Part shown: piece by piece, positions 6,217-60,969 of the stretch
How positions within the stretch are numbered: the stretch's first letter is position 1
Layout: every line of letters starts with the position of its first letter
DNA from: a virus
Length of the DNA: 64,000 nucleotides
Direction: 5' to 3' (one strand)
Virus record (IMG/VR): IMGVR_UViG_3300011980_000002
Span: 32,001-96,000 of that record
Translations under genes and position numbers: made by a program
Notes under the pieces: model-generated
Seen by the model: only the letters and a program-made list of their open reading frames with translations
What the model was told of the DNA's origin: nothing
The model's database searches: none

Positions 6217-6221
6217 TAAAA

Positions 6222-32873: not shown

Positions 32874-32874
32874 T

Positions 32875-35295
32875 ATGGGAAAGAAAAAGAAATTTACCAC
32901 AGAAGATTTTAAAACTTATATAGATAATTATACTAAAGAAAATATCGCAGATGCCTCAAGAAGATTCTCTATAATATCTGGAGTTAATAGAAATGTGGCT
33001 AGGCATATTCCAGTAGTATTCGATGGATTAAAACCTGTTACAAGAAGAATACTCTTAGTAATGTATGAGAGTAAAACTAATAAGTTCCAAAAGGTAAATA
33101 AAGTAGCCGGAGATGCTATGGGTAAGTATCATCCACATGGCGATGCTTCTATATCGGATGTCATTAGTAAGATGGGACAAGATTGGAATAATAATATTAC
33201 CTATATAGAAACTCAAGGTAACTTTGGTAATAGACAAGGTGATGATGCAGCATCTGGTCGTTATACAGAGTGTAAATTATCTAAGTTTGCTTATAAGTGT
33301 TTCTTTGAAGATTATAAGTATGCTTCATTAGATACTAAGATGAGTTATACTGGTAATGACGAGGAACCAGATTATTTACCATCTAAATATCCTATAGGAT
33401 TGGTTAATCCACAATTTTCCAGTATAGGATATGGTACAGCAGCTAATATACCACCATTTAATTTTACTGAAGTTTTAGAGGCTACTATTAAACTTATTAA
33501 AGACCCTGATAGTAGGATTAATCTAATACCCGATTTCCCATCAGGTTGTGATGTTATAGCTAATAGTGATTTAGCTGAAGTAGAAAAAACTGGTATTGGT
33601 AAAGTATTAGTCAAATCTTCTACTGAAATTGATTATAATAAGAATATTATTCATATAACATCATTACCATTACAAATCGGTACTAAAGCTGTAGCTTATA
33701 ATATATCTAATTTAGTATTAGCTAAGAAGATAGAAGGAATAGCTGATATTAAAGATTATACAGACCCAGAAGTTGGAGTACTATTAGATATACATTTAAA
33801 ACCATCTATAAATCCAGATAAGATATTAGAAGAATTAATGAAGAAAGATGTTGGTTTAAAGAAGACATTTTCTATACAGATTAAGTTTATAGATGATTAT
33901 CAAGAGTATGATTATTCTCCAAAAGAATTTCTATTGACATGGTTAGATTTTAGAAGAGAAATACTTCAATCTATGTATAATAATAAATATGTTAAGTTAT
34001 TGGAAGAGCAGCATATGAATAATGTCAAGTTATTTGTATTCAATAAAGATAACCTTAATCAAACTGTCGATATATGTAGAAAAGCTTCTTCTACTAATGA
34101 TGCAATAGAGAAGTTAATGAAGAAGTATAAAGATAGTGAAGTTGGAATGACTTCTATGCAAGCTAAGACTATACAAGGAATGAGATTCTCAGATTTCAAT
34201 AAAGAATCTTATAATGGCTTCTTAAAACTAAAAGAAGAATTAAAAGCCTCTATTAAAGAAACTGAATTAATATTATCTAATACATCTAAGATAGATGAGA
34301 TAATAGAAAAGGAATTATTAGAGGGTATTTCTTTATTTGGTACCAAGAGAAGGTCTAAGATAATTTATAATAAACCTGATAAGAAAGAGATTATAGATAA
34401 GTCTAAGGTATTAGTAGCAGTATCTAAAGATGGTTATATTAAGAAGATTAATGTTAAAGAATATAAGACAATTGGTTCTTTAGGAAACCAATCTTCAAGA
34501 CAGGTTATATTAGCAGAGACCAGAAACGATAAGAATATATTAATATTTGATAGTACTGGTAAATGTACTAAGATACCTGTATTATCTATTCATGAATCTA
34601 CTCCGGAAGAAAATGGAGTAATGATAGAAAGATTCTTTAAAGTATCCGGTAATGTCGTAGCAGTAATGGAAGAAATTACAGATAAGGAATTATCTAAAGA
34701 TTTATTAATAACTTTCTTTACTAAGAAAGGATTTTCTAAAAGAACTTCTTGTAAAGAATTTTACAATATGAAAGATAATAAAACTGCTATTAGTATAACA
34801 GAAGGTGATGAATTAGTAGCAGTAATAAATACTTTAAAAGATTCTTCTAAAGATATCATTATCTATACAGATAAAGGTGATGGTATAAGATTAGATATTA
34901 ATGATATTAAAATCCAAGGAGCATCTACTCGAGGATTAAATATGATTAATTTAACAGATGATGAATATGTAGTAGGGGTAGATAAAATAGAGGCTAATAA
35001 GAAGTTATTAGTATTTATCACATCTATGGGAAGAGTTAAAGTTAGTGAACTTAAATATCTTCCACCTATGAATAGGAAAGATGGTTCCGTATCATTAATT
35101 AATCTTAATAATAATGAATACTTGGTAGGACTTGCATCTGTAAATAATAAAAATACATTAACTGTATTTAGGAAATTTGGAGAGCCTGTAGATATTAAGA
35201 TAGAGGATATTAAACCGTCTATGAGAATAGCTAAAGGTGAGAAATTAGTTAAAACTCCTAGTGGTGATATTGTAGTAGGATTTAGGATTATTTAA
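32875..35295 (+). CDS. Type II DNA topoisomerase, cleavage-religation subunit (GyrA/ParC, T4 gp52-like)
   Basis: RHIPVVFDGLKPVTRRIL, GKYHPHGDASISDVISKM, GNFGN..GDDAASGRYTECKL (active-site Tyr). ATG at 32875; the track start at 32863 is a TTG. Confidence 0.85.
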   Translation: MGKKKKFTTEDFKTYIDNYTKENIADASRRFSIISGVNRNVARHIPVVFDGLKPVTRRILLVMYESKTNKFQKVNKVAGDAMGKYHPHGDASISDVISKMGQDWNNNITYIETQGNFGNRQGDDAASGRYTECKLSKFAYKCFFEDYKYASLDTKMSYTGNDEEPDYLPSKYPIGLVNPQFSSIGYGTAANIPPFNFTEVLEATIKLIKDPDSRINLIPDFPSGCDVIANSDLAEVEKTGIGKVLVKSSTEIDYNKNIIHITSLPLQIGTKAVAYNISNLVLAKKIEGIADIKDYTDPEVGVLLDIHLKPSINPDKILEELMKKDVGLKKTFSIQIKFIDDYQEYDYSPKEFLLTWLDFRREILQSMYNNKYVKLLEEQHMNNVKLFVFNKDNLNQTVDICRKASSTNDAIEKLMKKYKDSEVGMTSMQAKTIQGMRFSDFNKESYNGFLKLKEELKASIKETELILSNTSKIDEIIEKELLEGISLFGTKRRSKIIYNKPDKKEIIDKSKVLVAVSKDGYIKKINVKEYKTIGSLGNQSSRQVILAETRNDKNILIFDSTGKCTKIPVLSIHESTPEENGVMIERFFKVSGNVVAVMEEITDKELSKDLLITFFTKKGFSKRTSCKEFYNMKDNKTAISITEGDELVAVINTLKDSSKDIIIYTDKGDGIRLDINDIKIQGASTRGLNMINLTDDEYVVGVDKIEANKKLLVFITSMGRVKVSELKYLPPMNRKDGSVSLINLNNNEYLVGLASVNNKNTLTVFRKFGEPVDIKIEDIKPSMRIAKGEKLVKTPSGDIVVGFRII

Positions 35296-38483: not shown

Positions 38484-40235
38484 ATGAAAAATATATTGCC
38501 TTTCATGACAGAGTCTGGAAGTACATTTTCTCAGACATCTACCATTGGGTCTTTTTCTAATGGTAGACATATGAATTCATTCGATGATAACTATACAAGA
38601 GTTTATAATCAGTTTAATAATCAAGGACTTAAGATAAATACAGATATTCGTGCTATACTCGAAGATCAGGCTATTTATGAGAGTTTCCGTGATGAACTTA
38701 TAAGTGATATACTTAATGATTGTGATCATTATAGTTATGCTGAGCATGGTAACCTTGCAGCATTAGCTGAGCAGGTTTCTACCATGATGGATAACAGAAG
38801 AGATATGCTTCTTTCAGAGTCTGTTACAACCGGTACTTTGCTTCCAATAAAGATGATTGACTTCCCACTTATCGTTAAGGAACATCTTAAGAATGTTATT
38901 AAGGATATTATGCAGTGTGAAGTTACCAAGTCACCTGTTATTAAGAAGCATATTCAACATACATGGATAGTTGATAAGAAGACAAAGAAGAGATATGAGT
39001 ATCCACAGTGCTTCTATAGAAAAGGACAAGCTGCTGAGTTATTTGATGCAGGTAAGGGATATAAGCTCAATGATACTCCTTGTACTCTTCCAGCATTTAA
39101 TTATAAGATAATTGATAACCATGTTACTGGTATATCACTTCCGGAAAGAGAGAAGCTCTCTATAAATACAAAGATAGTTTATGGTGTACTTGCAGATAAT
39201 ACTAAGGTACCTCTTGACATGAGAATCAATCTTGCAGATGGTTCTTGGTTAGGTGGACTTATAGATACAAAGGTAGAGTCAACAGCTACACCTGGTACAT
39301 TCCATGATGTTAAGGATTGTATTACCGGTTATGTAGATTTCACTAATAATACTACATCCATATCATCTGCTAATGGAACTATTAAGAAGGTTATATTTGA
39401 AGGATATCTTTCAAATGAACTTAATGAAAGAGCTGTAACATTCGATTACTCAAGAGAGGAAAGAGAATGGAAGATTGAAGATGGACATAGAGTTGATGTT
39501 CCATATTCAATAGAGGAGCTTGAAGATGCTAAGGCACTTCTTGACCTTGATTTGTACAAACTTAGCTATAGTAATCTTTCTGATTACTTAGTAAATATGG
39601 AAGACGCTGATGGTCTCGCCTATCTTGATGAAGCATTTAAGAAGTTTGAAGGTCTTACTCTTGACCCACTTGATTTTAATGGTTTCGTTAAGAAGCAGAC
39701 ATTTGATTGTGATTCTACTCATGCTACTGTAGCTCTTCCATGTGAATATATCGAGAAGCAACTTAAGTTCTTGATAGATAGATTTGTTATTGATATAGCT
39801 GATACTGCTAAGCTTGATGATGTTACATTTGTTATTTATGGTAACCCAAGATATGTTTCACTTCTCGGTGGAGCTGTTAACTGGGTTGTTAATAGTGGTG
39901 ATACAATTGGTGGTGTTAAGCTTACAAATAGTTATGGTATAATGAACTCTGGTGGAGTTAAGATACAAGTTATATCTTCTGATAAGATACTTGTTCCGGA
40001 TAATAAGGGTCTTAAGATTATACCATATCCAACATCTGATAAGACAATGACATTTAAACACTATAAGTATACATCTCATATACTTACTGCTGCTAATTCT
40101 GCTTATAAGGATGCTGATAGACCAGGTGGAAGCTATACAAATATCGTTGGTGTTTCAAGATACACCAATGCAGGTATACAGCAAATACAGGGTCATATTA
40201 CATTTACAAATGATACATCATATATTAAGATATAA
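38484..40235 (+). CDS. Probable major capsid protein
   Basis: 583-aa ORF with a clear codon-usage shift (ctt, aag, ggt, gct) typical of very highly expressed genes. It is preceded by the acidic protein and followed by a strong terminator. No motif-level identification was possible. Confidence 0.5.
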   Translation: MKNILPFMTESGSTFSQTSTIGSFSNGRHMNSFDDNYTRVYNQFNNQGLKINTDIRAILEDQAIYESFRDELISDILNDCDHYSYAEHGNLAALAEQVSTMMDNRRDMLLSESVTTGTLLPIKMIDFPLIVKEHLKNVIKDIMQCEVTKSPVIKKHIQHTWIVDKKTKKRYEYPQCFYRKGQAAELFDAGKGYKLNDTPCTLPAFNYKIIDNHVTGISLPEREKLSINTKIVYGVLADNTKVPLDMRINLADGSWLGGLIDTKVESTATPGTFHDVKDCITGYVDFTNNTTSISSANGTIKKVIFEGYLSNELNERAVTFDYSREEREWKIEDGHRVDVPYSIEELEDAKALLDLDLYKLSYSNLSDYLVNMEDADGLAYLDEAFKKFEGLTLDPLDFNGFVKKQTFDCDSTHATVALPCEYIEKQLKFLIDRFVIDIADTAKLDDVTFVIYGNPRYVSLLGGAVNWVVNSGDTIGGVKLTNSYGIMNSGGVKIQVISSDKILVPDNKGLKIIPYPTSDKTMTFKHYKYTSHILTAANSAYKDADRPGGSYTNIVGVSRYTNAGIQQIQGHITFTNDTSYIKI

Positions 40236-43053: not shown

Positions 43054-44010
43054 ATGGCTAATAATTTTCTAACTAAATATGATGTTCATGACATTAAAAC
43101 TTCTTTTAATATAAAAAAAGTTATGTCTGAGCATAGTATAAATTGTAAAAAAGCTGAGCTTAAAGTATTGACTGAATCTGGTACAGATGAGGACTTCTAC
43201 TACTTATACCAAGAATCTATGAGTGATGCTATTGGAAAACTTGGAGAGATAATAGATGATATAATAAAGAAATTCATTGAATTTTGTAAAGATGTACAGA
43301 TACAGATATTATCAAAGATTAACTCAGTTGAATTTAAGTCAAATGTGCAAAAAATAAACGATAAGCTTAAGTTCAATCCATTCTTAAGAAGTAAATCACA
43401 GACAGTTAGTGATTTTAATCCCAAGATGAAAGATTATATAGAAGCTTCTTCAAAACTTGCTAAGATGGTTGCAAAACTTAAAAGTGGTAATTCAGTATCT
43501 ACTGAAATTGACAACTTTGCAGACTGGTTTGATGATTTAGCTGAGAAGCAAATGAAACAGAGAAAATTGAGTAATGCTGCCATATTTGCAACACTTAAGA
43601 GTTTAATGGAGAAGGTTGATGGTGAAATTAAGAAGATTCGCGATGATGCTAGGGATCTTCTTACAGATGTCAAAGGTATCAAACCTAAAAAAGATGATGA
43701 TGATAACGATATAAATCTTAAATCATCAGCTACTAAACTTTGTAATTATATATCAAGAGTTAGTAGAGCAGCTATAAGGCTCCGTGTAACGACATTAAGT
43801 GAGTATCTTGCAGTATGTAAGAGAGAAATTCTTAATGCTAAAGAAGAAGATGTTAAGAATGAGTCATATGAATATGAAGATAGTTATGATTCGGATTACG
43901 AATATGATTACAGTAATGACGATGATTCTTCAGATGATGATTCAGATGATGATTATGAATACGAATCTGGATATGATTACGAAGACAATTACGATGAGTA
44001 TGATTTTTAA
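43054..44010 (+). CDS. Fam-C paralog 3 (long D/Y/E/S tail)
   Basis: N-terminal LKVLTESGTDE plus helix IIDDIIKKFIEFCKD. C-terminus YEYEDSYDSDYEYDYSNDDDSSDDDSDDDYEYESGYDYEDNYDEYDF. Confidence 0.6.
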   Translation: MANNFLTKYDVHDIKTSFNIKKVMSEHSINCKKAELKVLTESGTDEDFYYLYQESMSDAIGKLGEIIDDIIKKFIEFCKDVQIQILSKINSVEFKSNVQKINDKLKFNPFLRSKSQTVSDFNPKMKDYIEASSKLAKMVAKLKSGNSVSTEIDNFADWFDDLAEKQMKQRKLSNAAIFATLKSLMEKVDGEIKKIRDDARDLLTDVKGIKPKKDDDDNDINLKSSATKLCNYISRVSRAAIRLRVTTLSEYLAVCKREILNAKEEDVKNESYEYEDSYDSDYEYDYSNDDDSSDDDSDDDYEYESGYDYEDNYDEYDF

Positions 44011-44015
44011 ATAAT

Positions 44016-44054
44016 AATATACGGTAATAAGGTATGTCCTTATTACCGTATATT
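44016..44054 (+). terminator. Hairpin terminator (17-bp perfect stem)
   Basis: aatatacggtaataagg / ccttattaccgtatatt. Confidence 0.65.
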
Positions 44055-44058
44055 ATTT

Positions 44059-44104
44059 ATCCGTATTTTCTATATATATATCGATATATTATTTATATGT
44101 AAAA
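44059..44104 (+). promoter_or_regulatory. Extended early-type promoter-like motif (ATCCGTAT variant)
   Basis: atccgtattttctatatatatatcgatatattatttatatgtaaaa. Confidence 0.45.
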
Positions 44105-44135
44105 TAAAATAATATACGAAAGGAGATTCATAATT

Positions 44136-44363
44136 ATGAAATCTCAATTAAAACTAACATCTTATCTCGTTTCATCTTACGAAAGAGAAATGCCATTTAT
44201 ATTGGCATCTTCTGATATAACATTCATCAGATCTGCAATTGATAACATAAATAGCGTTATCAATAATGCATATTATGATGAGTATGATGAAAGAGAGTGT
44301 AACCTTAATTACAAACTAATTAAAATGTGGTCAGAAATGACATACAAATTGATTAGTTTGTAA
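44136..44363 (+). CDS. Small hypothetical protein (75 aa) in a self-contained cassette
   Basis: Has its own promoter-like motif, SD aaaggaga and terminator. Confidence 0.6.
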   Translation: MKSQLKLTSYLVSSYEREMPFILASSDITFIRSAIDNINSVINNAYYDEYDERECNLNYKLIKMWSEMTYKLISL

Positions 44364-44373
44364 TTAAGTTTAA

Positions 44374-44410
44374 AAAGTAATGCATGTGCACATTGTGCAT
44401 TACTTTTTTT
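44374..44410 (+). terminator. Rho-independent terminator
   Basis: aaagtaatgca / tgcattacttt followed by a T-tract. Confidence 0.75.
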
Positions 44411-44487
44411 GAAAATTGTTACTATTAATCGTATAACTTTATATTTTTTAATATAGTATATTAAAAAATATAAAGGAGACATTAGTA

Positions 44488-45015
44488 ATGAATGAAAAAC
44501 TAAAAGAACTTATTGATTATGCTAAGAAGGGGAGATCTGAAACTGTAAATGGATATTATACTAAACTTAACAAGTTGAAAGAATCTAATAAAGATAACAA
44601 GCTTACTGATAGTTCTATTGTTAAGAATTGTCCAAATTATAGTGATACTCTCAAGAGATATGAGGACTTGTTTAATATTATTATAGATATTGAAGACGCT
44701 CATAATGAGAAAGAAAGTTTTAATGATGAGATAAAGCGTTATCGTGAAACTTATAATAATATGATGTCAGTTGGTATCGTTTGTAATAAGCAAGAAACAT
44801 ATAGCACGTGTATGAATAAAATTAAAGATGGTATAGAACATCTTGATACATTATTCGATGCTGCTGAACATAATGCAAAATCATTATCTGATAATATTTC
44901 AGATAGTGATAGAATATGTAATTTATTACTAGGACATTATAAGAATTATATCAAGAGTCAAAAATTGGAAATTGATGCTTGGATAAATGCAGTTACAGAT
45001 GCTCTTAAAAATTAA
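44488..45015 (+). CDS. Hypothetical helical protein
   Basis: SD aaaggagac, with its own terminator downstream. Confidence 0.6.
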   Translation: MNEKLKELIDYAKKGRSETVNGYYTKLNKLKESNKDNKLTDSSIVKNCPNYSDTLKRYEDLFNIIIDIEDAHNEKESFNDEIKRYRETYNNMMSVGIVCNKQETYSTCMNKIKDGIEHLDTLFDAAEHNAKSLSDNISDSDRICNLLLGHYKNYIKSQKLEIDAWINAVTDALKN

Positions 45016-45031
45016 TAAAGTTTCTTAATTT

Positions 45032-45067
45032 AACCCTATAGACAATTTAGTCTATAGGGTTATTTTT
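45032..45067 (+). terminator. Rho-independent terminator
   Basis: aaccctatagac / gtctatagggtt followed by tattttta. Confidence 0.7.
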
Positions 45068-45139
45068 ATCCGAATTTCTTATAAATCGTTTAGATTACAC
45101 AGTTATTTAAAGTTAAATTCAATAGAAAGGGAATAGTTT

Positions 45140-46153
45140 ATGGATAATACATTGCTATATTCTATACACTCAGATGTGATGATTGAAGACACTTTACTGT
45201 TCATAGACAGCTTATCTGATATATACTATGAAGACGGAGAAGCTTCAAATAATGAGGTTGTTGATGAAAAAAGTAAAAATATGTTTAGACGAGCATTTGA
45301 TGCTGTAATGAAATTTATAAATGGTCTTATTGAAAAAATTAAAACTCTTTTCCAAAGAATGGGTCTTAGTAAAGAAGAAAAGAAAGAGTTTGATGAGATA
45401 AGAAAAGCTATAATGGCTGACCCTGATATTAAAAATAAATCATTTACTGTAGACGATTACAGAAAAGCTAAAGCTCAGGAAGAAGCTATTATTAAAGAAA
45501 TGGAAGCCATACAAAAAGCTGCTGAACAGGCTGGTAATGATGAACAAGAAGCTGAAGTTATAGACAGAGGTATGGAAAAAGTTAAAGGTATGATGAGTGG
45601 TGTTGTTGATGTTATGGGTACTGCTGGTAAATCTATTGCTACAACTATAGGTGCACAACAGATACTCCATATGGCAGAATCTAATAGAAACTTTGCTCAA
45701 ATGGTTTATGGTATGCTTGAAAATGAAGAGGGTCTTACAAAACAACTTGAAGATGCTATAGGTAATAAGCAAACTAATAAGTTTAAAAAAAGCATTAAGT
45801 CTTGTACCAAATGGTTGTCATGGCATAAGTTTAAGGCTATGATGTTTGGTACTATATGTAAAGATATGAGTAAATCATTTAGTCATACTATAAAAGATTT
45901 AAAAGAATTAACAAATCCTAAGAATTCTATAGGTGCACACTTAAATCGTGCGAAGCATCTCAATATGGTTAATAATGTTGTTGGGGGAGTTAATCAAAAA
46001 TATGGTACAGATTTTAATCTTATAGACATTGCAAAAGCCGGTGTTCAAGTAAAACATGCTATAGATGATACTAAATCAACAGTATCTAAAGCTAGTGGAT
46101 TTGTCAATAGAACTGTGAATAATTTTAAGAATAGGAATAATAATAATGCATAG
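45140..46153 (+). CDS. Fam-C paralog 4
   Basis: N-terminal DVMIEDTLLFIDSLSDIYYEDGE plus helix RRAFDAVMKFINGLIEKIKTLF. Gly/Ala-rich segment VVDVMGTAGKSIATTIGA. Confidence 0.6.
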   Translation: MDNTLLYSIHSDVMIEDTLLFIDSLSDIYYEDGEASNNEVVDEKSKNMFRRAFDAVMKFINGLIEKIKTLFQRMGLSKEEKKEFDEIRKAIMADPDIKNKSFTVDDYRKAKAQEEAIIKEMEAIQKAAEQAGNDEQEAEVIDRGMEKVKGMMSGVVDVMGTAGKSIATTIGAQQILHMAESNRNFAQMVYGMLENEEGLTKQLEDAIGNKQTNKFKKSIKSCTKWLSWHKFKAMMFGTICKDMSKSFSHTIKDLKELTNPKNSIGAHLNRAKHLNMVNNVVGGVNQKYGTDFNLIDIAKAGVQVKHAIDDTKSTVSKASGFVNRTVNNFKNRNNNNA

Positions 46154-47072
46154 TTTAGATGAAGCAAGTATTAGATATGATATAATAACAGAATCGTTAG
46201 ATATCGACTTTTACAAAAATGATGCAATACTTAGTACTTGTATATTATTAGAGTCTGATAATACAAGTAGCGTTGTTGAAAAACGACATAATATACTAAA
46301 AGAATTTATAAAAGTCGTTATTGAAAAAATTCAAAAATTGATAGATTTCATTAAATCTAAATTTAATAAGGATAGAATAGATGTCATTAATAACATCAGT
46401 AAAGAAAATCCAAGAGCTACTATTACAGTTAGCAAGGACCCGAATGTGGTTATACAAGCTGCAAATGAGTCTATAAAAGAAATTGAAACTGCAATTTCTA
46501 AACAGAAAAAAGGTATTTTCAGAAAAGAAGATGGAAGTATTAATGTTAGTAAAGTTATATATACAGCAGTTGGTGCTGCAACAGCAACTACTATCGGTAT
46601 TATAGTGGTACCTAAACTTATAAATACTATAAATGGACTTCTTGGAAAACTTAAAAATCTTGGTAGAGATGTTATGACAAATATTGACCAAGATAAAAAT
46701 TCGTTCAATAAGGCTAAAAGTAAAACTCCAGCTAAAACTTCATTAGCTAGTAAGGTTGTTTATAATGTCGGTAAGGGAATTGGGTTTAGTGTAGGTAATA
46801 CTGTGAAAACATCTGTTACAACTGCTGCGAATAGAGGATTTGTACCAACCTTCAATATATCCCTAAATTTACCGGACCCAAAAATGTATCAACAACAGAT
46901 GCAAGCACAAAATGAAATTGTTAAGGCTATCTCTAATACCACTAAGGTATTGGAAACTACTTTAAATAGGGATTTATTGAATAACCCAGATATCAATAAA
47001 GTTGCAAATGAAGTATCTGATGAAAAAAGTGATATGAATGATAAACAAACATCTCAACAAAATAATCAATAA
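46146..47072 (+). CDS. Fam-C paralog 5
   Basis: ILSTCILLESDN plus helix LKEFIKVVIEKIQKLIDFIKSKF. Hydrophobic helix VIYTAVGAATATTIGIIVVPKLI. ATGCATAG start/stop overlap with the preceding gene. Confidence 0.7.
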   Translation: MHSLDEASIRYDIITESLDIDFYKNDAILSTCILLESDNTSSVVEKRHNILKEFIKVVIEKIQKLIDFIKSKFNKDRIDVINNISKENPRATITVSKDPNVVIQAANESIKEIETAISKQKKGIFRKEDGSINVSKVIYTAVGAATATTIGIIVVPKLINTINGLLGKLKNLGRDVMTNIDQDKNSFNKAKSKTPAKTSLASKVVYNVGKGIGFSVGNTVKTSVTTAANRGFVPTFNISLNLPDPKMYQQQMQAQNEIVKAISNTTKVLETTLNRDLLNNPDINKVANEVSDEKSDMNDKQTSQQNNQ

Positions 47073-47090
47073 TAAGTTTGGAGATAAATT

Positions 47091-48341
47091 ATGGCAAAAA
47101 TAATCTCTGAAGTTCGTAATATAAAAGATAACACTTTTGAATATGAAAAGCGTCTTCAAAGTCCTTACAATAGACTAATTGATAAGGCTCCAACACCTGT
47201 AACGTATTTTCATATTAATGATAATGAGTCTACAGTTAATGAAGGATATCAAGATATTGAAGAAATTATTGGACCCAAATCTCCATTAAGATTTGATAGA
47301 ATTGAGGGATTTCCTTTATACGGAGTCCCTCAAATTAATCCAAATATACAAGAAGATGATCAAGGAATAAATATAACATTTGAAGCTGAATGTTTTATTT
47401 TACCACATACGATAAAACCTAATCCAAATGATTTCTTCTTAATCGATGTATTGGATATTCATGATGTATACATATTCAAAATTACAGATATTGCGTATGA
47501 TAATATTCACCCAGACAATTTTTATAAGACACAGTTTAGGTTAGAATTAACTTCTAAAGAGAAATTAGCATACTTAGAAAAACAAGTTATAAATAACTAT
47601 ACTTGTATTATAGATAATATTGGTACCGATAGTCATTGTATTATAGAAACTGATAAGTTTACTAAATATCAGAAAGTTAAAGATACCTATGATGATTTAG
47701 TAAATCTTTATGTTAGTATATTTTATAATGAAAAATATAATTGCTTTTTAGGTGAATATCCATGTAATAAAAAACTCTACGACCCTTATATGGTTGAGTT
47801 TGTTAATAAGTGGAATCTATTCAATAGTAAAGATAAAATTAATTCACTTATCATTAGTCAAGAAATTGATGATAATAAGTTTAAATTAAAATATGAGAAA
47901 TCTGTGTGGAGATTTATTGAGAAAAATGATTATAGTTTATTAAATAAATTCATTTTTTATATTTATCGAGCAGATACTCTGAAGTATACTACATTTGCAT
48001 TATATAGAGATGCTACTGTAAATATACTAGATATTCCTTTATCATTTTATAGTGACACTGACACGAGATGTATATTTAATGATGAGTTTATTAATAATAT
48101 AAAAGATAATAAAGAGTGTAAGAGTTCTTATGGTAATTTATTAAAGAAGTATATACTAAAAGAAAAATTAGATATAAATTCTATACCATTAGATATTAAT
48201 GAAACTTTATATAGCTTAGAAGCAGATGTCGAATTTTTCTTTATAACTCCAATGATTCTTTATATTATGAAAAAGATAATGAAAGATAGTTTTAAGTATA
48301 GTATTAGTTATAATACTATGAATGATAATAAAATGTATTAA
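47091..48341 (+). CDS. Hypothetical protein (likely virion-associated by context)
   Basis: 416-aa ORF with SD ggaga. No family recognised. Confidence 0.6.
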   Translation: MAKIISEVRNIKDNTFEYEKRLQSPYNRLIDKAPTPVTYFHINDNESTVNEGYQDIEEIIGPKSPLRFDRIEGFPLYGVPQINPNIQEDDQGINITFEAECFILPHTIKPNPNDFFLIDVLDIHDVYIFKITDIAYDNIHPDNFYKTQFRLELTSKEKLAYLEKQVINNYTCIIDNIGTDSHCIIETDKFTKYQKVKDTYDDLVNLYVSIFYNEKYNCFLGEYPCNKKLYDPYMVEFVNKWNLFNSKDKINSLIISQEIDDNKFKLKYEKSVWRFIEKNDYSLLNKFIFYIYRADTLKYTTFALYRDATVNILDIPLSFYSDTDTRCIFNDEFINNIKDNKECKSSYGNLLKKYILKEKLDINSIPLDINETLYSLEADVEFFFITPMILYIMKKIMKDSFKYSISYNTMNDNKMY

Positions 48342-48348
48342 TACGAAG

Positions 48349-48427
48349 AATTGTTTTTTTTTTTGTATGAATTATATTTAAATTACGAAAGGAAACAATA
48401 ATTAATTATGTATGATGATTTATATTT
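48349..48427 (+). repeat. Duplicated regulatory region plus 5' CDS (copy 1 of 2)
   Basis: aattg-T11-gtatgaattatatttaaattacgaaaggaaacaataattaattatgtatgatgattt is nearly identical to 52401-52479. Confidence 0.85.
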
Positions 48428-49409
48428 AGACAATTTAGATTTTGACATATTTATAGAGTCTACAGAACTAATATTTGAAAGTGTTAGTTGTAATAATGAA
48501 ATATCTTTATTATTAGAAGATGGTAATGATAATAAGAAAAAGAATATTATCATGAGAGCCGTTGATGCAATAATGAAAAAGATTAGAGAAATTATAGATT
48601 GGATAAAATCTAAATTATTTGGTGGTAAAAATAAGAAATATGAAGATTTTCTAAAACTTGCAGATAGTAAAGTAAGTGGATTATCTGTGGAATTTGATAA
48701 ATCTCCTAAGAAAGTTTATGAATTATATTCTGATATATTTAAAGCAATTTCTAAGAATTATGATAAATTATCAGGAAATGATAATTCCAAATTTATCGAA
48801 GAGGTTAAAGAGAAATTAAGTAGAGATATTAGCAAAGAATATTTATCTCCAAAAGAATGTATAGATTTATTTTACAAATATAATAAACTATCTTTAGACT
48901 ATAAGGGATTAAGTGATAAGATTAGTAATTATATTAAGAGTAAAGCTAATAGTGGAATAGATTGCTCGCAAGAACAAAAAGCTTTATCTTTAATTACTAG
49001 ATTAATGAATGATATAAGAAATAATATGAGCAAGATATCACCTACAACTATATCTAGTAATAATAGTGTCATAAGTAAAGTGAAGACATGGGCTAATGAC
49101 AATCCTGATGAAGCCGCTTTACTTATCGCAAACCTGAGTGCACTTGGATTAGTTACAGGAATGGCTGTTGGTGTTAAAGCCATGAAAGGTGCTGATGATA
49201 GGATTAAAAATAGTATGAAAGAACATGATGCTCGTATGAAAGCTGAAAAAGAGGTATTAGATAAGAAGCATAAAGATAATATGAAAGTTCTTGATGAGAT
49301 GCATAGAAAGATTGATGATGTAATAAAAAATGTTGATTTAGGTGATACTGAAGCAGTTAAAAAAGCTGAAAAAGAAATGGAAAGAATAAGGAAACAATAT
49401 AGACATTAA
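48408..49409 (+). CDS. Fam-C paralog 6
   Basis: DIFIESTELIFESVSCNNEISLLLEDG, IMRAVDAIMKKIREIIDWIKSKLF, hydrophobic helix AALLIANLSALGLVTGMAVGV. Confidence 0.8.
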   Translation: MYDDLYLDNLDFDIFIESTELIFESVSCNNEISLLLEDGNDNKKKNIIMRAVDAIMKKIREIIDWIKSKLFGGKNKKYEDFLKLADSKVSGLSVEFDKSPKKVYELYSDIFKAISKNYDKLSGNDNSKFIEEVKEKLSRDISKEYLSPKECIDLFYKYNKLSLDYKGLSDKISNYIKSKANSGIDCSQEQKALSLITRLMNDIRNNMSKISPTTISSNNSVISKVKTWANDNPDEAALLIANLSALGLVTGMAVGVKAMKGADDRIKNSMKEHDARMKAEKEVLDKKHKDNMKVLDEMHRKIDDVIKNVDLGDTEAVKKAEKEMERIRKQYRH

Positions 49410-49428
49410 TATGGTAAGGAATTTTTTT

Positions 49429-50250
49429 ATGATTAATAAATATGACATAGAAACCGAATTATTTATAGAATCTATGGAATTATTATTTGCTAGAATTGAT
49501 AGTGAAAATTCAATCTCATTATTACTTGAATCTGGTGATAATCCTAAAAGAGAAAGTGTATTATTGAAAGCTATATCTGCTATAGTTAAGAAGATAAATG
49601 AAATTCTCAATTCAATTACAGATAATTTATCTGGCAAAGATTCTGATAAATACTATAGGTTTATAAAGCAAGTAAGTGGTAAGATTCCGGATTGTAAAAT
49701 AGCAGTTTCAGTGGATATTAGTAAGTTATATGAGGTATATTCTAAATCTCATAAAATTATTCTTGATAACTATAGAACTTCTAAAGATTATAGTTATATA
49801 GATGAGGTTGATAAATTGTTTACAAATGAAATCAATAAAAGTACCACGGTAACTTTAAATGAAATTGTATTATTATTTAACAAATATAAAGACTTAGCTA
49901 ATAAATACGATAATCTCACATATGATATAGAAAGATTGATATATAGGAAATCTAAATCTAATGAGAGCGTTAGTGATTTAAAAAGTGCATTGCTTAAAAT
50001 TACTAAGATTGCAAATGGTATAAGAAACACTGTATCTAAGATAGCACCTGAAAAAGTAATAAGAACTACAGAATTTAAGAATAGTATTAAATCTTCAATA
50101 GATAACGATACTATTAAAACTAATGCAATTCCAGATGGTATCTTAAATGCTATGAGGATACACGGTGAACATACCAGAATGCATGATGAAAATAACGAAA
50201 TGCATAATCAGAATCATCAATTACATTTAGCAATGAATGGAATGATGTAA
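49429..50250 (+). CDS. Fam-C paralog 7
   Basis: ELFIESMELLFARIDSENSISLLLESG, LLKAISAIVKKINEIL. The ATG at 49429 has SD taaggaa; the track start at 49411 is 6 codons upstream. Confidence 0.75.
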   Translation: MINKYDIETELFIESMELLFARIDSENSISLLLESGDNPKRESVLLKAISAIVKKINEILNSITDNLSGKDSDKYYRFIKQVSGKIPDCKIAVSVDISKLYEVYSKSHKIILDNYRTSKDYSYIDEVDKLFTNEINKSTTVTLNEIVLLFNKYKDLANKYDNLTYDIERLIYRKSKSNESVSDLKSALLKITKIANGIRNTVSKIAPEKVIRTTEFKNSIKSSIDNDTIKTNAIPDGILNAMRIHGEHTRMHDENNEMHNQNHQLHLAMNGMM

Positions 50251-50266
50251 TAAAGGGAATATCTAT

Positions 50267-51010
50267 ATGAATTATGATGATATAGAATATATTAAAAATG
50301 AAATATTTATAGAAAAATCCATTTTATATATTGAAAAATATAATAGTGATTTAAGTATATCATTATTACTAGAAGACGGTGATACTGGTTCTGGTGGCAT
50401 TGCTACTATTATAAATAAATCATTAGATAAATTGGAAGGTTTATATAATTCTCTCATTAATAAGTTTTTTAATAATAAGAATCGTCAGTTTGAAAGTTTC
50501 TTATTAAAGATTGGTAAGAAAATATCTAAAGAAGATTTTTCTATTTCATTTAATATAAATCCTGAAAAATTATACGAAAATCAACTTGACAGTATCAAAC
50601 TTATTAGTGATAATTATGATAAACCTGAAAATGTTAATAAGTTTCTTGATGTAAATACAGTTGTACCAGACTTAGGTAAACCTACAGATTTAACAATTGA
50701 AGAATGTATAGATATATTTCATAAGTTTGAAAGATTATCAATTTTATGTGAGAAAACTTCAAAGACTATGTATAAATCTATCATGGTAAGAATAAAAAAT
50801 CTTGGTGAAAGACAGCATGTTTCTAATGTTGGATTATATGAAATGATACATATAATGAATATTATTCATATAAATATTAAAAGATTTAGTCCAGAAGCAA
50901 TATATAATAATAGTAAATTTAAATATGCTGTTAAAAAACTTGTAAATAAAGATCCTAATAATATCAAACTTATACCAAATAAGTTTAGAGATGATTTTGA
51001 TTTAAAATAA
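50267..51010 (+). CDS. Fam-C paralog 8
   Basis: EIFIEKSILYIEKYNSDLSISLLLEDG. Confidence 0.75.
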   Translation: MNYDDIEYIKNEIFIEKSILYIEKYNSDLSISLLLEDGDTGSGGIATIINKSLDKLEGLYNSLINKFFNNKNRQFESFLLKIGKKISKEDFSISFNINPEKLYENQLDSIKLISDNYDKPENVNKFLDVNTVVPDLGKPTDLTIEECIDIFHKFERLSILCEKTSKTMYKSIMVRIKNLGERQHVSNVGLYEMIHIMNIIHINIKRFSPEAIYNNSKFKYAVKKLVNKDPNNIKLIPNKFRDDFDLK

Positions 51011-51056
51011 AACCTATTTATTAAAAAGAATAAAATGAAAGGATTATTATTTTAAA

Positions 51057-52346
51057 ATGAAAAAAATAGATGCTGTAAGATATACTACAAAAGAATTTAA
51101 AAAATGGGTTAACTATACAGAAAAAAATTCAAAAGCTGGATTGGGAAATACTACATATGATAGTCCAGGTCCATATAATATGAATGCAGGGTCTAATAAC
51201 TATACAGTATTTGCTGATTACTATAGGCAAAAAACCGGAATATCTGTTCAAGGAATGCCATGGTGTTTTAGTGAAGGTAATATAAAACTTGAAGATTCCT
51301 ATAAGGATATTTCAGATATACACCCTGGTGAAAAGGTATTAAGTGGTATTGGTAATAGATATAATATCGTTATATCTAACACACCACATGATGAATATGT
51401 TATAAAAGTATCATCTAATAAGACTAATCCGTTGATAGGGACTCCAGACCATCCAGTATACTCCATTAAGAATAATAATGAACCTCAATTAAATCCACTT
51501 AGTGATTTATCGATAGGTGATATTTTACTGATATATTCATATGAATATAATGATGAATCATCAATAACTTATAATGGGATACAATACTCAAAATCTATTA
51601 TAACAGATATTGAGGTATTGAAAGATAAACAAACTGTTTACACGTTAGCAGTTGATGGTGATCATACATATACAGTTAATAATGTAGCAGTTCACAATTG
51701 TGATAGCTTTGTTGATACTGTATTCATACATTTGTATGGTGTAGAGAGAGCTAAAAAGTTATTAAATGGATTTTCTGCGTATACCCCTACATCTGCTGGA
51801 TACTTTAAAGCTGTTAGCAGGTGGTTTAGTAGACCTGAGCCTGGAGATATAATATTCTTTAAAAATAGTGAAAGAATAAATCATACTGGATATGTACATG
51901 ATGTATCTGGTAATACAGTTTATACCGTAGAAGGAAATACTTCATCAGGTAATAATGTAGTAGTTGCTAATGGTGGTTGTGTTGCTCTTAAATCATATGA
52001 TATACATAATCCAAGGATAGCTGGATATGGTAGACCTGATTATGAAGGTGTATTAAGAGACTTTAATCCTGAAGGATTTGTCGAAGGTTGGTTTAAAGCA
52101 GCAGATAATGTTCGTTGGTGGTATCAGTTTAGTAATGGAACATATGCTAAAAATAATGGTACGAATAACGGATGGTATAAGATTAAAAATAAATGGTATT
52201 TATTTGATACTAATGGTTATATGTTAACAGGGCATCAGACTATTGGTGGACAAGAATACTATTTATGTGAAGATCCAAATAAGGTTGAAGGTGCATTGAT
52301 GAAAACTGATGAAAATGGTGCACTAACTATTTGGGAAAGTGAATAA
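51057..52346 (+). CDS. Endolysin precursor: CHAP/NlpC-P60-like amidase-peptidase interrupted by a mini-intein, with C-terminal cell-wall-binding repeats
   Basis: Exteins QGMPW|CDSFVD..GDIIFF..INHTGYV..TVEGNTS carry the Cys/His signature. The C-terminus GWYKIKNKWYLFDTNGYMLTGHQTIGGQEYYL resembles CW_binding_1 repeats. Confidence 0.8.
   Translation: MKKIDAVRYTTKEFKKWVNYTEKNSKAGLGNTTYDSPGPYNMNAGSNNYTVFADYYRQKTGISVQGMPWCFSEGNIKLEDSYKDISDIHPGEKVLSGIGNRYNIVISNTPHDEYVIKVSSNKTNPLIGTPDHPVYSIKNNNEPQLNPLSDLSIGDILLIYSYEYNDESSITYNGIQYSKSIITDIEVLKDKQTVYTLAVDGDHTYTVNNVAVHNCDSFVDTVFIHLYGVERAKKLLNGFSAYTPTSAGYFKAVSRWFSRPEPGDIIFFKNSERINHTGYVHDVSGNTVYTVEGNTSSGNNVVVANGGCVALKSYDIHNPRIAGYGRPDYEGVLRDFNPEGFVEGWFKAADNVRWWYQFSNGTYAKNNGTNNGWYKIKNKWYLFDTNGYMLTGHQTIGGQEYYLCEDPNKVEGALMKTDENGALTIWESE
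51264..51698 (+). mobile_element. Mini-intein (145 aa, Hint domain) inserted at the catalytic Cys of the lysin
   Basis: Begins CFSEGNIKL, contains TPDH (TxxH block B) and VYTLAVDGDHTYTV (block F), and ends VAVHN followed by Cys+1. Confidence 0.8.
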
Positions 52347-52400
52347 TGTCCTAATTGGCATATATTAATATTAAAGATAAAAAATAGTATAGAAAAAAAA

Positions 52401-52479
52401 AATTGTTTTTTTTTTTGTATGAATTATATTTAAATTACGAAAGGAAACAATGATTAATTATGTATAATGATTTGTATAT
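52401..52479 (+). repeat. Duplicated regulatory region plus 5' CDS (copy 2 of 2)
   Basis: See 48349-48427. Confidence 0.85.
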
Positions 52480-53305
52480 AAAAGCTTTGAATGATGTGAT
52501 ATTCTGGGAATCTATAGATTTAGCATTATCTTCAATAGATATGAATGACGGAATAGCCGTTCTATTAGAGGATGGTGAAACTAATTCTAAACAAGCTAAT
52601 ATCGTCATGAGAGCGGTAGATGCTATAATGAAAAAGATTAAAGAAATTATAGATTGGATAAAAGGAATATTTTCCGATAAAAGTGAACAGAAATATATAG
52701 ATTTTCTAAAACAATTGGAGTCTTATGCTAAGGATACTCGTATAGAGTTTGGAAAAGATCCATCACAAGCATGCAAACGATATATAGATATACTTAAAAT
52801 TGTATCAAAAAATTATAATAGAAATTATGATAAAGATGATTTTAATAACGATGGTTATTGGTATTCGGACATAAATAACCTTTTGAAAAAGGAAGTTGGA
52901 AGTTCTGAATTAACAATATCAGACTGTCTAAAATTCTCAGAGAAGTTCAAAAATCTTAGTTATGAGTATAAAAATCTATCTGATAAGCTATATTCTACAA
53001 TTAAAACTAAGAGTAAGGCTGGGATAGACACTAAGAATGATCGAAAACTATTAACTTTAATCGGAAAGATTGAAAGTGACATTAGAAAACAAATAATGAT
53101 GCTAACACCTAGTATCATAAGTAGGAAAGGTTCGGTAAAAGAAAAACTTAAGTTGCTTTTAGCCGATCCTAGAACTAGTAAGCTTGCGTATATAGCAGCA
53201 TCCTTAGGGATAGGTGTTGTAGCAGGTAAAGCGTATATAAATAAAATGGATAAAACCCGTGAACAGAGAATACGATATGAAGAACTTGAAAAGCTTGTAT
53301 TTTAG
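52460..53305 (+). CDS. Fam-C paralog 9
   Basis: VIFWESIDLALSSIDMNDGIAVLLEDG, IVMRAVDAIMKKIKEIIDWIKG, hydrophobic helix LAYIAASLGIGVVAG. Confidence 0.8.
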   Translation: MYNDLYIKALNDVIFWESIDLALSSIDMNDGIAVLLEDGETNSKQANIVMRAVDAIMKKIKEIIDWIKGIFSDKSEQKYIDFLKQLESYAKDTRIEFGKDPSQACKRYIDILKIVSKNYNRNYDKDDFNNDGYWYSDINNLLKKEVGSSELTISDCLKFSEKFKNLSYEYKNLSDKLYSTIKTKSKAGIDTKNDRKLLTLIGKIESDIRKQIMMLTPSIISRKGSVKEKLKLLLADPRTSKLAYIAASLGIGVVAGKAYINKMDKTREQRIRYEELEKLVF

Positions 53306-53449
53306 GGTTTTATAGCTCAGTACTAAAATGATTGGAATCACTGTATTCTGATAGGGATACAATTATGAGATATTAATATTGTGATATATATATATATATC
53401 GTAATAGAGATAGGAAATGTGTAATATTAACAAGAAAGGAAAACATAAA

Positions 53450-54481
53450 ATGAATGATTTTTATTTAGAAATTCTTAACGATGATATATTTTGGGAATCT
53501 ATGGATTCAACATTATCTTCAATAGATATGAATGATGAAATAATAACTATGTTAGAAGATGGAGAATCTAATTCTAAACAGGCTAATATTATCATGAGAG
53601 TAGTTGATGCTATAATGAGGAAAATTAGAGAAATCATAGATTGGATAAAAGGGATATCATCTAATAAAAATGAACAGACTTATGCAGATTTTTTAAAACA
53701 ATTAGAATCTCGTGCTAGAGATATTCGTATAGAATTTGATAAGGATCCATCATATGCGTATACACAATATGTCGACATATTCAAAATCATATCAAAAAAT
53801 TATGATAAAAGTGGATCTAATGATAATAAAGACTGGTTTTCAGATATAGATGATATTTTAAGTAGAGAACCGAAAAACTCAGAATTAACAATATCAGATT
53901 GTCTAAAATTATCAACAAAGTTCAAAGACCTTAGTAATAATTATAAAAATTTATCTGATAAAGCATATAATATAATTAGAACTAAAAGTAAGAATGGTGT
54001 TGATACCAAAGATGAGCGAAGAGTACTAACTATAATCGGAAAGATTGAGACGGATATCAAGAAACGAATGATGATGTTAACACCTAGTGTCCTGAGTAAG
54101 AAAGGTTCTATAAAAGAGAAACTTAAATTAGTTTTGGGTGACCCAAGAACACCAGGTAAACTTGCACAACTTGCATTATCCTTAGGAATAATTGCAGCAA
54201 GTGCAATATATAAAAAAACAAGCGATGCTATCACGAAGAAGAAAAGATTTGATGATGCGATTTCTGATGTAATGGACAATAGAATAGAGAACGATATGCT
54301 CTTAAATAAAGTTAAAGGTGGATATAATGTTAGAGATGCTGATGTTAAGAAAAAACATGGTCGTTTAGATGAGGTGTATATAAAATATCAAAATTCCGAT
54401 GGGGATAATAAATATAATAAATATAGTAGAAAAGATTATAAAGAAAAATATAAAGGCAATGATCTTTGGCAAATATATTAA
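53450..54481 (+). CDS. Fam-C paralog 10
   Basis: ATG at 53450 with SD agaaaggaaa. DIFWESMDSTLSSIDMNDEIITMLEDG, IIMRVVDAIMRKIREIIDWIKG, LAQLALSLGIIAASAIY. Confidence 0.8.
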   Translation: MNDFYLEILNDDIFWESMDSTLSSIDMNDEIITMLEDGESNSKQANIIMRVVDAIMRKIREIIDWIKGISSNKNEQTYADFLKQLESRARDIRIEFDKDPSYAYTQYVDIFKIISKNYDKSGSNDNKDWFSDIDDILSREPKNSELTISDCLKLSTKFKDLSNNYKNLSDKAYNIIRTKSKNGVDTKDERRVLTIIGKIETDIKKRMMMLTPSVLSKKGSIKEKLKLVLGDPRTPGKLAQLALSLGIIAASAIYKKTSDAITKKKRFDDAISDVMDNRIENDMLLNKVKGGYNVRDADVKKKHGRLDEVYIKYQNSDGDNKYNKYSRKDYKEKYKGNDLWQIY

Positions 54482-59064: not shown

Positions 59065-60822
59065 CTATTTTTTCTTACCAGTAGATTTCTTACTTGGTGG
59101 TTTGTATGCAGGTTTCTTATTAGCATTCTTTCCTTTACCTTTACTACTCTTAGATTTTGTACCTGCTGTTTTATTACCCATATCTGTTTTTACATTAGAT
59201 GTGGCTACAACTTGTCTACCAGACTTTTTAGCTTCTCTAAATCTTAATTTAAAGGTATAAGCAGGCATTCCTGTAGTATTAAAGGTTTCTATAAATGGTG
59301 CACCAACCCATGTTGTATTTACCATATAATCACCATTATTAATTACTGGTACATATGCAAATCCATTGCTCTTTTTAGAATTCATATTAAATTCTACTAA
59401 TGATAATGGATTGTAATCTTCTTTAAATGAGTATTGATATCTTATCTCTATACTCGGATTACTAAGAATATTACCAGCAGCCCATGAGTATTGAGCAGAT
59501 GGAATTGTTTGTGGGAATACTCCATAATACTTAGACCAGAAAATTACAGTTTCACCATCTTCCGCAGTTACGATATAATATAGACAAGTTGCATAATCCA
59601 TTATCTTATCTATTATATATTCATGCTTAGGATTTATCATTCCTTGGAATACACCTGATATATAATCTGCCCACATCTTATGTAAATGGAACACATGAAG
59701 ATTTCTATCGTCATAATACTCTATACTAAAATCTCCAGCAGTCTTAGACTCTATATTACTTTTACCATATGCTACTTGATGACCTGTGAAAGTTTTACCA
59801 TATTTACTCACATTAATGAATTCATCAGTAACATTAAATGACCTTGCTCTATTAGATAGATACATCATAAAGTCTGAATCATATCCACCGTCCATTACTA
59901 ATTGTCTTAGTATCTCAGGAGAGTTGTGATATGCATAAACAAAGTTAGGGTCATTTTTTAACCCTTCTACTAAGTCATAATTTTCACCAGCTCTAACTAA
60001 TATATTACAATCAGGTCTTACAAAAAATACATGGGGATAGCATTTAGCAAGTACATCATTACCTTGGTTTGTCTTAAACCTATTATATGAATTAGTGTAT
60101 TTTCTAAAGAGTTCATCTCTACTATAAAGACCAAAATTAAGACTATCTCTAATCTTATCCATATCTTCCAGTATCTTATCTCTCTCATAATCCATATGGT
60201 AGTTATATTCATACCATTGCTTATCTTGATCACTATTAAATCTGATTTTAGGTGGATAACCTGCTTTATTTTGAACTAAAGAAGGATCTCTTTCATTAAG
60301 TTTCTTTAACTCTGCTTGAGTCATTCTTCCTGCAACTTTTCTTAAATACCAATCTTTATTCCTATCTATTTTAGCTCCATCATATAAAGCATCATCAAAG
60401 TAATAAGTATTTTCTTTCTTATTCTTCCATAAAGCTGCGGAACCATCTAGTGGGAATTTATCATAACCTTCTATCTGTTGTTCACCACCAAGCATATTAT
60501 TCAATGCAGACTCAATATCTTCTTGACTTGGACCTTCAGGTGGCTTAGGTGCTTCTTCTGCTTTAGGTTGTTCGGCAGGTTGTTGTTCTTGTGTTCCTTG
60601 GTCTATATGTAAGAATGGATAAGAGTAACGAGGGTCTTGTTGACATACCCAGTTACCATTGTATTTAACCCATACCCATCCACCACCAGGAGCAGTTGTC
60701 TCTAATTCACCTACATCTATAGTAGTACCTTTAGCAAGTTTACCTACTATACGAGTTTGTATAGATGGACCTTGACGAATATTAAGTCTTGTTTGTCTTG
60801 TTGTAACGGTCGCAGTTGCCAT
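59065..60822 (-). CDS. Protein with an N-terminal SH3b-like domain, a P/E/Q linker, a large unknown domain and a Lys-rich tail
   Basis: TRLNIRQGPSIQTRIVGKLAKGTTIDVGE...GGWVWVKYNGNWV is bacterial-SH3-like. ATG at 60822 with SD aaggag; the track start at 60831 is a TTG. C-terminus KSKSSKGKGKNANKKPAYKPPSKKSTGKKK. Confidence 0.6.
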   Translation of the reverse strand: MATATVTTRQTRLNIRQGPSIQTRIVGKLAKGTTIDVGELETTAPGGGWVWVKYNGNWVCQQDPRYSYPFLHIDQGTQEQQPAEQPKAEEAPKPPEGPSQEDIESALNNMLGGEQQIEGYDKFPLDGSAALWKNKKENTYYFDDALYDGAKIDRNKDWYLRKVAGRMTQAELKKLNERDPSLVQNKAGYPPKIRFNSDQDKQWYEYNYHMDYERDKILEDMDKIRDSLNFGLYSRDELFRKYTNSYNRFKTNQGNDVLAKCYPHVFFVRPDCNILVRAGENYDLVEGLKNDPNFVYAYHNSPEILRQLVMDGGYDSDFMMYLSNRARSFNVTDEFINVSKYGKTFTGHQVAYGKSNIESKTAGDFSIEYYDDRNLHVFHLHKMWADYISGVFQGMINPKHEYIIDKIMDYATCLYYIVTAEDGETVIFWSKYYGVFPQTIPSAQYSWAAGNILSNPSIEIRYQYSFKEDYNPLSLVEFNMNSKKSNGFAYVPVINNGDYMVNTTWVGAPFIETFNTTGMPAYTFKLRFREAKKSGRQVVATSNVKTDMGNKTAGTKSKSSKGKGKNANKKPAYKPPSKKSTGKKK

Positions 60823-60969
60823 AGTATACAACTCCTTCCTTTCCTTTATAAATTATTATGTGTTGCTTTAAGCTAATGTTTTTTATAGGGTTTTTCAATA
60901 AATGTGATGAATTTATATATTATAAATATGGATACTTAATTTAATAGAAAGGATAATTGGTTACAACAA

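Follow-up and report, generated by a model that had tools for sequence, protein, structure and literature searches.

The window analysed here is a stretch of 64,000 nucleotides, positions 32,001 to 96,000 of the IMG/VR virus record IMGVR_UViG_3300011980_000002. On its forward strand lies what is, with high probability, the gene for a CHAP-type jumbo-phage endolysin split by a canonical class-1 mini-intein, the remnant of a family of LAGLIDADG homing inteins that targets this site. An initial annotation, made from the sequence alone, had placed a mini-intein at the catalytic cysteine of the lysin. The open reading frame (ORF) that it described, with 429 codons plus stop and a precursor of 48.4 kDa, was recovered by ORF listing and translation, and the translation is identical to the one quoted. 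The insert occupies residues 70-214, beginning with CFSEGN and ending with VAVHN before CDSFVD (coordinates in Table 1). The exact protein is also present in a public collection, encoded on a 223-kb contig. The intein mechanism itself is ordinary and well known; the apparent novelty lies in the class of host protein and in a sizeable and apparently undescribed family of inteins at this lysin site.

Homology shows that the insert is a genuine HINT/intein domain rather than a pattern that arose by chance. Searched on its own against intein profiles, a check proposed with the initial annotation, it matched Pfam Intein_splicing at E 1.1e-8 (35.5 bits), as well as PT-HINT and the TIGR family intein_Nterm more weakly. 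A phmmer search with the insert against 1.84 billion representative proteins gave 138 matches at E<=1e-3, and a Pfam scan of the best 55 of these 138 found Intein_splicing in 45, Hint_2 in 36, Hom_end_hint in 18 and LAGLIDADG_3 in 16. A single-sequence search of the PDB with the insert returned weak matches only (E about 0.5). A profile built from the insert and 19 related mini-inteins reached solved HINT structures, with 2LWY at 1e-20 and gp41-1 at 7e-17, and also matched the Spl DnaX, DnaB, RecA, RadA and PI-SceI inteins.

The features of a class-1 intein are all present: Cys1, TPDH in block B, VDGDHTY in block F, the C-terminal HN and Cys+1. In the alignment of the 20 mini-inteins, the invariant columns (intein numbering) are C1, T60, H63, P64, Y126, H144 and N145. 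A regular expression found no LAGLIDADG motif in the insert, and no endonuclease family was among its Pfam matches. Together with the Intein_splicing match and the profile matches to solved inteins, this bears out the earlier description of a mini-intein without an endonuclease. A six-frame translation search detected no further intein of this family in the window.

The boundaries of the insert are marked by an allele that does not carry it. P0002, a protein of 284 residues encoded on a related 216-kb phage contig, is 98% identical to the lysin and reads QGMPWCDSFVD without interruption. P0001 (430 residues, 92% identical), encoded on a 210-kb contig, bears the intein; the neighbouring genes on the contigs of P0001 and P0002 are partly syntenic. 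At the DNA level, the intein-less allele on contig L001 is without exactly the 435 nucleotides of the insert, reading CCTTGG↓TGTGAT (↓ marks the insertion point or, in proteins, a splice junction), and its insertion site is ...CAAGGAATGCCTTGG↓TGTGATTCATTCGTTGAT.... Extein DNA is 91-96% identical across three alleles, and the two inteins, those of the window and of the second intein-bearing allele, are just 84% identical. Exteins that failed to align with uninterrupted homologues had been named at the outset as grounds for rejecting an intein. The alignment proved to be contiguous across the junction, with W-C-D unbroken in P0002 and in more than 100 intein-less homologues.

The cluster of the window protein contains 11 variants of 429-430 residues, of which six are encoded on 210-223-kb contigs. 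Their exteins are near-invariant, and all retain CFSEG, GT(P/T)DHP, VYTLxVDGDHTY (with a single variable position, A/T/M) and VHN. Residues 152-190 are hypervariable. Directly after the junction (window 51702-51710), both intein-bearing alleles read GAT AGC TTT; the intein-less allele (L001, approximately 6211-6219) reads GAT TCA TTC, with a serine codon from the other codon family in which three bases differ. This difference beside the junction could mark a tract of co-conversion or a target site that resists the endonuclease.

By prediction, splicing yields a peptidoglycan hydrolase of CHAP type that also has repeats of the choline-binding type. The sequence spliced in silico matches CHAP (PF05257) with 34.5 bits (cut-off 26), compared with 31.1 bits for the precursor, and the match crosses the junction (residues 65-149 of the spliced protein). 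It also matches Choline_bind_3 with 41 bits (cut-off 27) and Choline_bind_1, and PHROG endolysin families match the window lysin. The C-terminal 85 residues consist of choline-binding or CW_binding repeats, which match LytA, Cpl-1 and toxin CROP repeats in sequence and fold; such repeats dominate the matches when the extein is searched as a single sequence against the PDB. Inspection by eye recognised no signal peptide in the lysin, as for a cytoplasmic phage endolysin. Thus the hydrolase of CHAP or NlpC/P60 type with wall-binding repeats, as originally proposed, holds on the CHAP and Choline_bind_3 scores and on the NlpC/P60 fold matches described below.

Four residues, C70, H131, E147 and N149 in P0002 numbering (C215, H276, E292 and N294 of the precursor), are invariant in 26 diverse intein-less homologues, and also in a 12-sequence set. 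Conserved residues of the N-extein are Y20, E22, K23, G45, N48, T50 and W69. The first 185 residues of P0002 were modelled with AlphaFold (AF2), giving a predicted local distance difference test score (pLDDT) of 91; in this model, the cysteine is the first residue of a helix spanning residues 70-91. The best Foldseek matches of this model in the PDB are all wall hydrolases of CHAP or NlpC/P60 type: Ly7917, 2EVR, 2HBW, LytE and Acd33800, followed by PlyGRCS, SagA, Gsp amidase and PcsB, with probabilities of 0.8-1.0 (0.96-1.0 for the top matches). Because it is invariant in the family and opens the helix of a CHAP/NlpC-P60-like model, Cys+1 is almost certainly the catalytic nucleophile of the CHAP domain, and the initial proposal that the +1 cysteine doubles as the lysin's nucleophile is well supported.

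Selection was compared between two intein-bearing alleles, those of the window and of L005, by the ratio of nonsynonymous to synonymous substitution rates (dN/dS; Nei-Gojobori). The ratio is 0.03 for the exteins and 0.25 for the intein overall. Within the intein, it is 0.21 in the N-terminal splicing region, 0.43 in the middle, where relatives have their endonuclease, and 0.06 in the C-terminal blocks. Since both exteins, including the 69-residue N-extein, are strongly constrained in alleles that bear the intein, this pattern speaks for a protein that is produced, undergoes splicing and has a use.

The following sequence of events would account for these observations. After translation, Cys70 would undergo an N-S acyl shift, the thioester would be transferred to Cys215, cyclisation of Asn214 would free a 16-kDa intein, and an S-N shift would link W69 to C215, giving a 32-kDa lysin with the predicted junction peptide TGISVQGMPWCDSFVDTVFIHLYGVER. 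In the joined lysin, catalysis would rely on Cys215 as nucleophile together with H276 and E292/N294. It is reasonable to expect that the unspliced precursor is inactive, because 145 residues would be wedged into the start of the catalytic helix. The choice of site would be explained by its conservation, as no stretch of the gene is more conserved, and by its supply of the obligatory +1 cysteine. The intein would persist because imprecise loss would wreck the lysin, rather than because it regulates lysis.

A widespread family of inteins occupies the same site in other lysins, those of uncultured phages. Counted over the listed proteins, including those of a further search seeded with P0088, and clustered at 90% identity, inteins at W↓C...HN↓C(D/A) are found in at least 52 CHAP-lysin clusters. 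Most of them (47 of 52) are 300-340 residues long, and only the window's own cluster has an intein of about 145 residues. Intermediate lengths occur in P0081 (236 residues) and P0128 (294 residues), whose inteins look like intermediate deletions. Among the longer inteins examined at this site (236-338 residues), 13 of 15 match a LAGLIDADG-like regular expression. A W↓C...HN↓CD insertion is shared by P0003, P0081, P0088 (encoded on a 226-kb contig), P0110 and P0116, with inteins of 236-333 residues; LAGLIDADG-like motifs, for example LLGYYISDG and LDGYLDADG, are present in four of these five, and none was found in P0081. The LAGLIDADG inteins of P0003, P0088, P0110, P0116, P0121 and others have an insertion point identical to that of the window element and lie in the same extein family.

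The lysin-site inteins and the window intein also have common ends, CF(T/S)xG at the start and Y(T/V/L)(A/V)N(N/D)xxVHN at the finish. Of the relatives of 300-340 residues, most of the ones inspected contain LAGLIDADG motifs, one or two apiece, whereas the window intein has only about 40 variable residues where their endonuclease domain sits. This distribution is that expected of a site-specific homing intein, of which the window element would represent the endonuclease-deleted stage. Of the 138 representative relatives of the intein, 13 interrupt CHAP-family exteins at an identical profile position, and several of these 13 rank among the strongest; the strongest matches after its own cluster include the lysin inteins P0121, P0124, P0081 and P0126-P0129. 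The host architectures are varied: CHAP+PG_binding_1, GH25+CHAP+SH3_3, Phage_lysozyme2+CHAP and CHAP+Cpl-7. Nearly all intein-bearing CHAP lysins derive from assembled metagenomes, and not one of them is descriptively named. The intein-bearing lysin gene of P0110 lies directly downstream of a Phage_holin_6_1 gene, on a small phage contig (L009) that also has terminase and portal genes; this arrangement is a canonical lysis cassette. The same contig encodes a reverse transcriptase (RVT_1; 12465-13535) beside genes of the tail-fibre region, which may belong to a diversity-generating retroelement.

Relatives of the window intein are not confined to lysins. In metagenomic C5 cytosine DNA methyltransferases, they interrupt the site GG(S/F)P↓C...HN↓CQxFS, whose +1 cysteine is the motif-IV catalytic cysteine. 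Carriers include P0134, P0141, P0142, P0160, P0225, P0231, P0248 and others; a second site, ENV↓C...HN↓CGAFSS, is also occupied, and several proteins have both. These methyltransferase inteins offer a parallel case of a catalytic cysteine used as the splice nucleophile, although the extein family and its function differ. Because these relatives behave likewise, the use of a catalytic cysteine is a recurring habit of this group of inteins and not specific to lysins. Inteins in actinophage methylases have been described, without discussion of catalytic residues (PMC9957025). Five further relatives, P0131, P0140, P0162, P0163 and P0239, consist of three to four tandem Hint units of 131-135 residues with KGG(G) linkers and lysine at +1. 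Judged by these features, the arrays are repeats resembling bacterial intein-like (BIL) domains and would be incapable of canonical splicing.

The initial annotation had suggested that the intein exerts post-translational control over lysis timing, possibly sensitive to redox state or temperature. Such an adaptive conditional switch, with splicing held back by a Cys70-Cys215 disulfide, temperature or another cue, is improbable and gains no support from the present results. It is true that Cys1 and Cys+1 lie side by side at the active site for splicing, that disulfide traps between these two residues are known in some inteins, and that the element has no endonuclease and is yet conserved in 11 phage variants under purifying selection. 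Stimulus-dependent splicing and disulfide redox traps are known for some inteins (review PMC8987985). However, any intein in a gene that the phage needs should show constraint on its splicing blocks, and no sensor-specific feature was found. Lysins 98% identical to that of the window are intein-less on related 216-kb phage contigs, and the fastest-evolving region of the intein is the former endonuclease position. In addition, dozens of lysins have an intein of 300-340 residues at the same site, and the majority of the inteins inspected there contain LAGLIDADG motifs; since endonuclease-bearing inteins occupy this site in many unrelated lysins, homing rather than regulation is indicated. In canonical holin-endolysin lysis, moreover, timing is set by the holin and not by the lysin. 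It is tempting to speculate about a co-opted checkpoint, in which a Cys70-Cys215 disulfide or temperature would keep the lysin inert, for example upon exposure of an anaerobic host to oxygen; this, too, is unlikely, and the window intein looks like a degenerate selfish element rather than a lysis-timing switch. Were a checkpoint to exist, lysis by this jumbo phage would be environment-dependent.

An insert that no longer splices, leaving either an inactivated lysin or a self-cleaving Hint domain of BIL type while another enzyme lyses the cell, is very unlikely. The top solved structure reached by the intein profile, 2LWY, is a bacterial intein-like domain, some relatives are the tandem Hint units with lysine at +1 for which canonical splicing would be impossible, and a second lysin-like protein with amidase and SH3 hints is encoded nearby. 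Against this, every class-1 splicing residue is present and invariant, and dN/dS between intein-bearing alleles is very low (0.03) in both exteins, including the N-extein of 69 residues, a segment that would be useless without ligation. A conserved site, a +1 cysteine and intein-less orthologues define an intein, not a BIL domain. BIL domains lie in variable regions of secreted or hypervariable proteins, have no relatives with an endonuclease and often lack a nucleophile at +1. The BIL assignment was rejected, given the conserved catalytic site, the +1 cysteine and the LAGLIDADG-bearing relatives at the same site; the top PDB match reflects the shared HINT fold. Just as doubtful is a virion-packaged lysin ejected from the head, in which case the intein would affect entry and not exit. 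The gene does lie in an array of at least eight paralogues, one of which matches phiKZ_IP (internal head proteins), but the lysin is without the N-terminal LLxE(D/S)G motif common to those paralogues, its 284-residue architecture of CHAP plus wall-binding repeats matches the endolysins found in small phages and prophages, and a homologous intein-bearing lysin comes after a holin gene.

Several points weigh against the interpretation of this gene as an endolysin split by an active mini-intein. The Intein_splicing score falls 0.3 bits under the curated Pfam cut-off of 35.8 bits. The CHAP fold matches are modest, with a best E-value of 1.5e-3 (up to 1e-2 for the top matches) and a template-modelling (TM) score of about 0.4, and a CHAP-only sequence profile reaches no solved structure; the domain therefore appears to belong to a divergent subfamily. 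No holin was recognised beside the lysin gene in the window, and the gene stands inside an array of paralogues resembling phiKZ internal head proteins, which means that it is the homologues that favour calling the product an endolysin and not a virion lysin. Finally, we infer splicing of the precursor from sequence, and loss of the endonuclease in this lineage from its relatives rather than from a phylogeny.

Compared with known systems, the window element resembles the class-1 mini-inteins gp41-1 and Spl DnaX and the engineered Mtu RecA and Ssp DnaB inteins. These likewise comprise a HINT domain of about 130-150 residues without an endonuclease, and share with it Cys1, TxxH, block F, the C-terminal HN and Cys/Ser/Thr at +1. 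The profile of the window family matches solved mini-inteins at E 1e-9 to 1e-17, although single-sequence identity is low. The host proteins differ: here the host is a peptidoglycan hydrolase of lysis instead of a replication, repair, nucleotide-metabolism or packaging protein. The lysin itself is predicted by its model to share with the CHAP endolysins Ly7917, PlyGRCS and LysK a papain-like fold, with a cysteine at the N-terminus of a helix and His plus Glu/Asn, and it is modular like them, with a C-terminal wall-binding domain. The catalytic residues of LysK are C54, H117 and E134, a spacing close to that in the window lysin, where His comes 61 residues after Cys, and Glu 16 after His. It differs from these enzymes in being divergent, in having an N-terminal extension of about 69 residues before the cysteine, and in its interruption by an intein.

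The preference of inteins for replication, recombination and packaging proteins is documented (Novikova 2016, PMC4760082), in agreement with the initial annotation. According to Payne and Hatfull (PMC3314691), introns and inteins are absent from all 224 Lysin A genes in their survey of mycobacteriophages, and lysins are not mentioned in a 2025 survey of actinobacteriophage inteins. No published intein in any endolysin was found in the open-access literature; an earlier mention elsewhere is possible. There, inteins and lysins co-occurred in connection with purification tags, inteins in other phage genes and group I introns, and the phage genes with published inteins that were met were TerL, GyrA, RNR, helicase and PolA. 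Group I introns do interrupt lysin genes, in staphylococcal phage K and its relatives and in S. thermophilus phages (PMC5526547). They are likewise selfish self-splicing elements with a homing endonuclease in a lysis gene. However, they are spliced at the RNA level and leave no precursor protein, whereas the interruption in the window is translated and would be removed at the protein level.

Table 1. Features of the intein-bearing lysin gene (window positions)
Feature	Position	Strand	Basis
Endolysin precursor gene	51057..52346	+	ORF listing, translation, PHROG endolysin family matches
N-extein, residues 1-69, N-terminal part of CHAP-family catalytic domain, ending QGMPW	51057..51263	+	Contiguous alignment with intein-less homologues
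Predicted class-1 mini-intein, residues 70-214, 145 residues, 16.2 kDa	51264..51698	+	Pfam Intein_splicing, profile, intein-less allele
Cys1 (C70), block A, predicted nucleophile for N-S acyl shift	51264..51266	+	Invariant in 20 related mini-inteins and 11 variants
Block B, T129-P-D-H132 (TxxH motif)	51441..51452	+	T and H invariant in 20-sequence intein alignment
Block F, VYTLAVDGDHTY, residues 194-205	51636..51671	+	VY, D and Y conserved across relatives
Block G, H213-N214, penultimate His and terminal Asn predicted to cyclise	51693..51698	+	Both invariant
Cys+1 (C215), nucleophile at the splice junction and, by prediction, catalytic Cys of CHAP	51699..51701	+	Invariant in 26 intein-less homologues
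C-extein CHAP core, residues 215-330	51699..52046	+	Pfam CHAP above cut-off, Foldseek
H276	51882-51884	+	Invariant in homologues
E292	51930-51932	+	Invariant in homologues
N294	51936-51938	+	Invariant in homologues
Choline-binding / CW_binding-type repeats, residues 345-429	52089..52343	+	Pfam Choline_bind_3, Choline_bind_1

The window is assigned to a phiKZ-like jumbo phage of approximately 210-223 kb with 27% G+C, in keeping with its other genes, and the host is probably a low-G+C Gram-positive bacterium. The G+C content of the window is 26-31%. It encodes a major head protein (38484-40235), a protein with a phiKZ_IP domain (43054-44010) and a head-tail joining protein (47091-48341). Topoisomerase II subunits are encoded at 30360-35295 by two adjacent large genes with an 11-nucleotide overlap, which match phage families of topoisomerase II and of its large subunit; neither gene showed an intein. 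A search of the region for near-identical DNA among 50,697 phage records gave no match, and a protein-level search gave only three weak partial matches; the phage thus has no deposited close relative. A promoter and terminator scan around the lysin gene yielded nothing above shuffled expectation.

The array around the lysin gene (43054-54481) contains at least eight paralogous ORFs, with starts at 43054, 45140, 46146, 48408, 49411, 50267, 52460 and 53417. They have an N-terminal LL(L/T)E(D/S)G motif in which Glu is the sole invariant column. Because one ORF matches Pfam phiKZ_IP, the paralogues are probably internal head proteins, with this Glu at a prohead-protease cleavage site. L001 and L005, two contigs of related phages, differ in how many of these paralogues they have and in which ones; the paralogues starting at 48408, 52460 and 53417 have a hydrophobic, transmembrane-like stretch near the C-terminus. 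On the reverse strand, 59065-60831 encodes a protein of 588 residues with a virion structural PHROG match and a weak N-terminal amidase match, whose homologue in L001 has faint SH3_3 and tail-tube matches. This product may be a tail-associated lysin, and thus a second wall hydrolase of the phage.

With a mini-intein in this gene, lysis enzymes join the known hosts of inteins. The gene would also be a naturally occurring case of a lysin synthesised as a precursor that is presumably inert, a property that could help in making lysins controllable. For phage populations, the matched intein-plus, intein-minus and endonuclease-bearing alleles of the lysin site offer material for studying the homing cycle.

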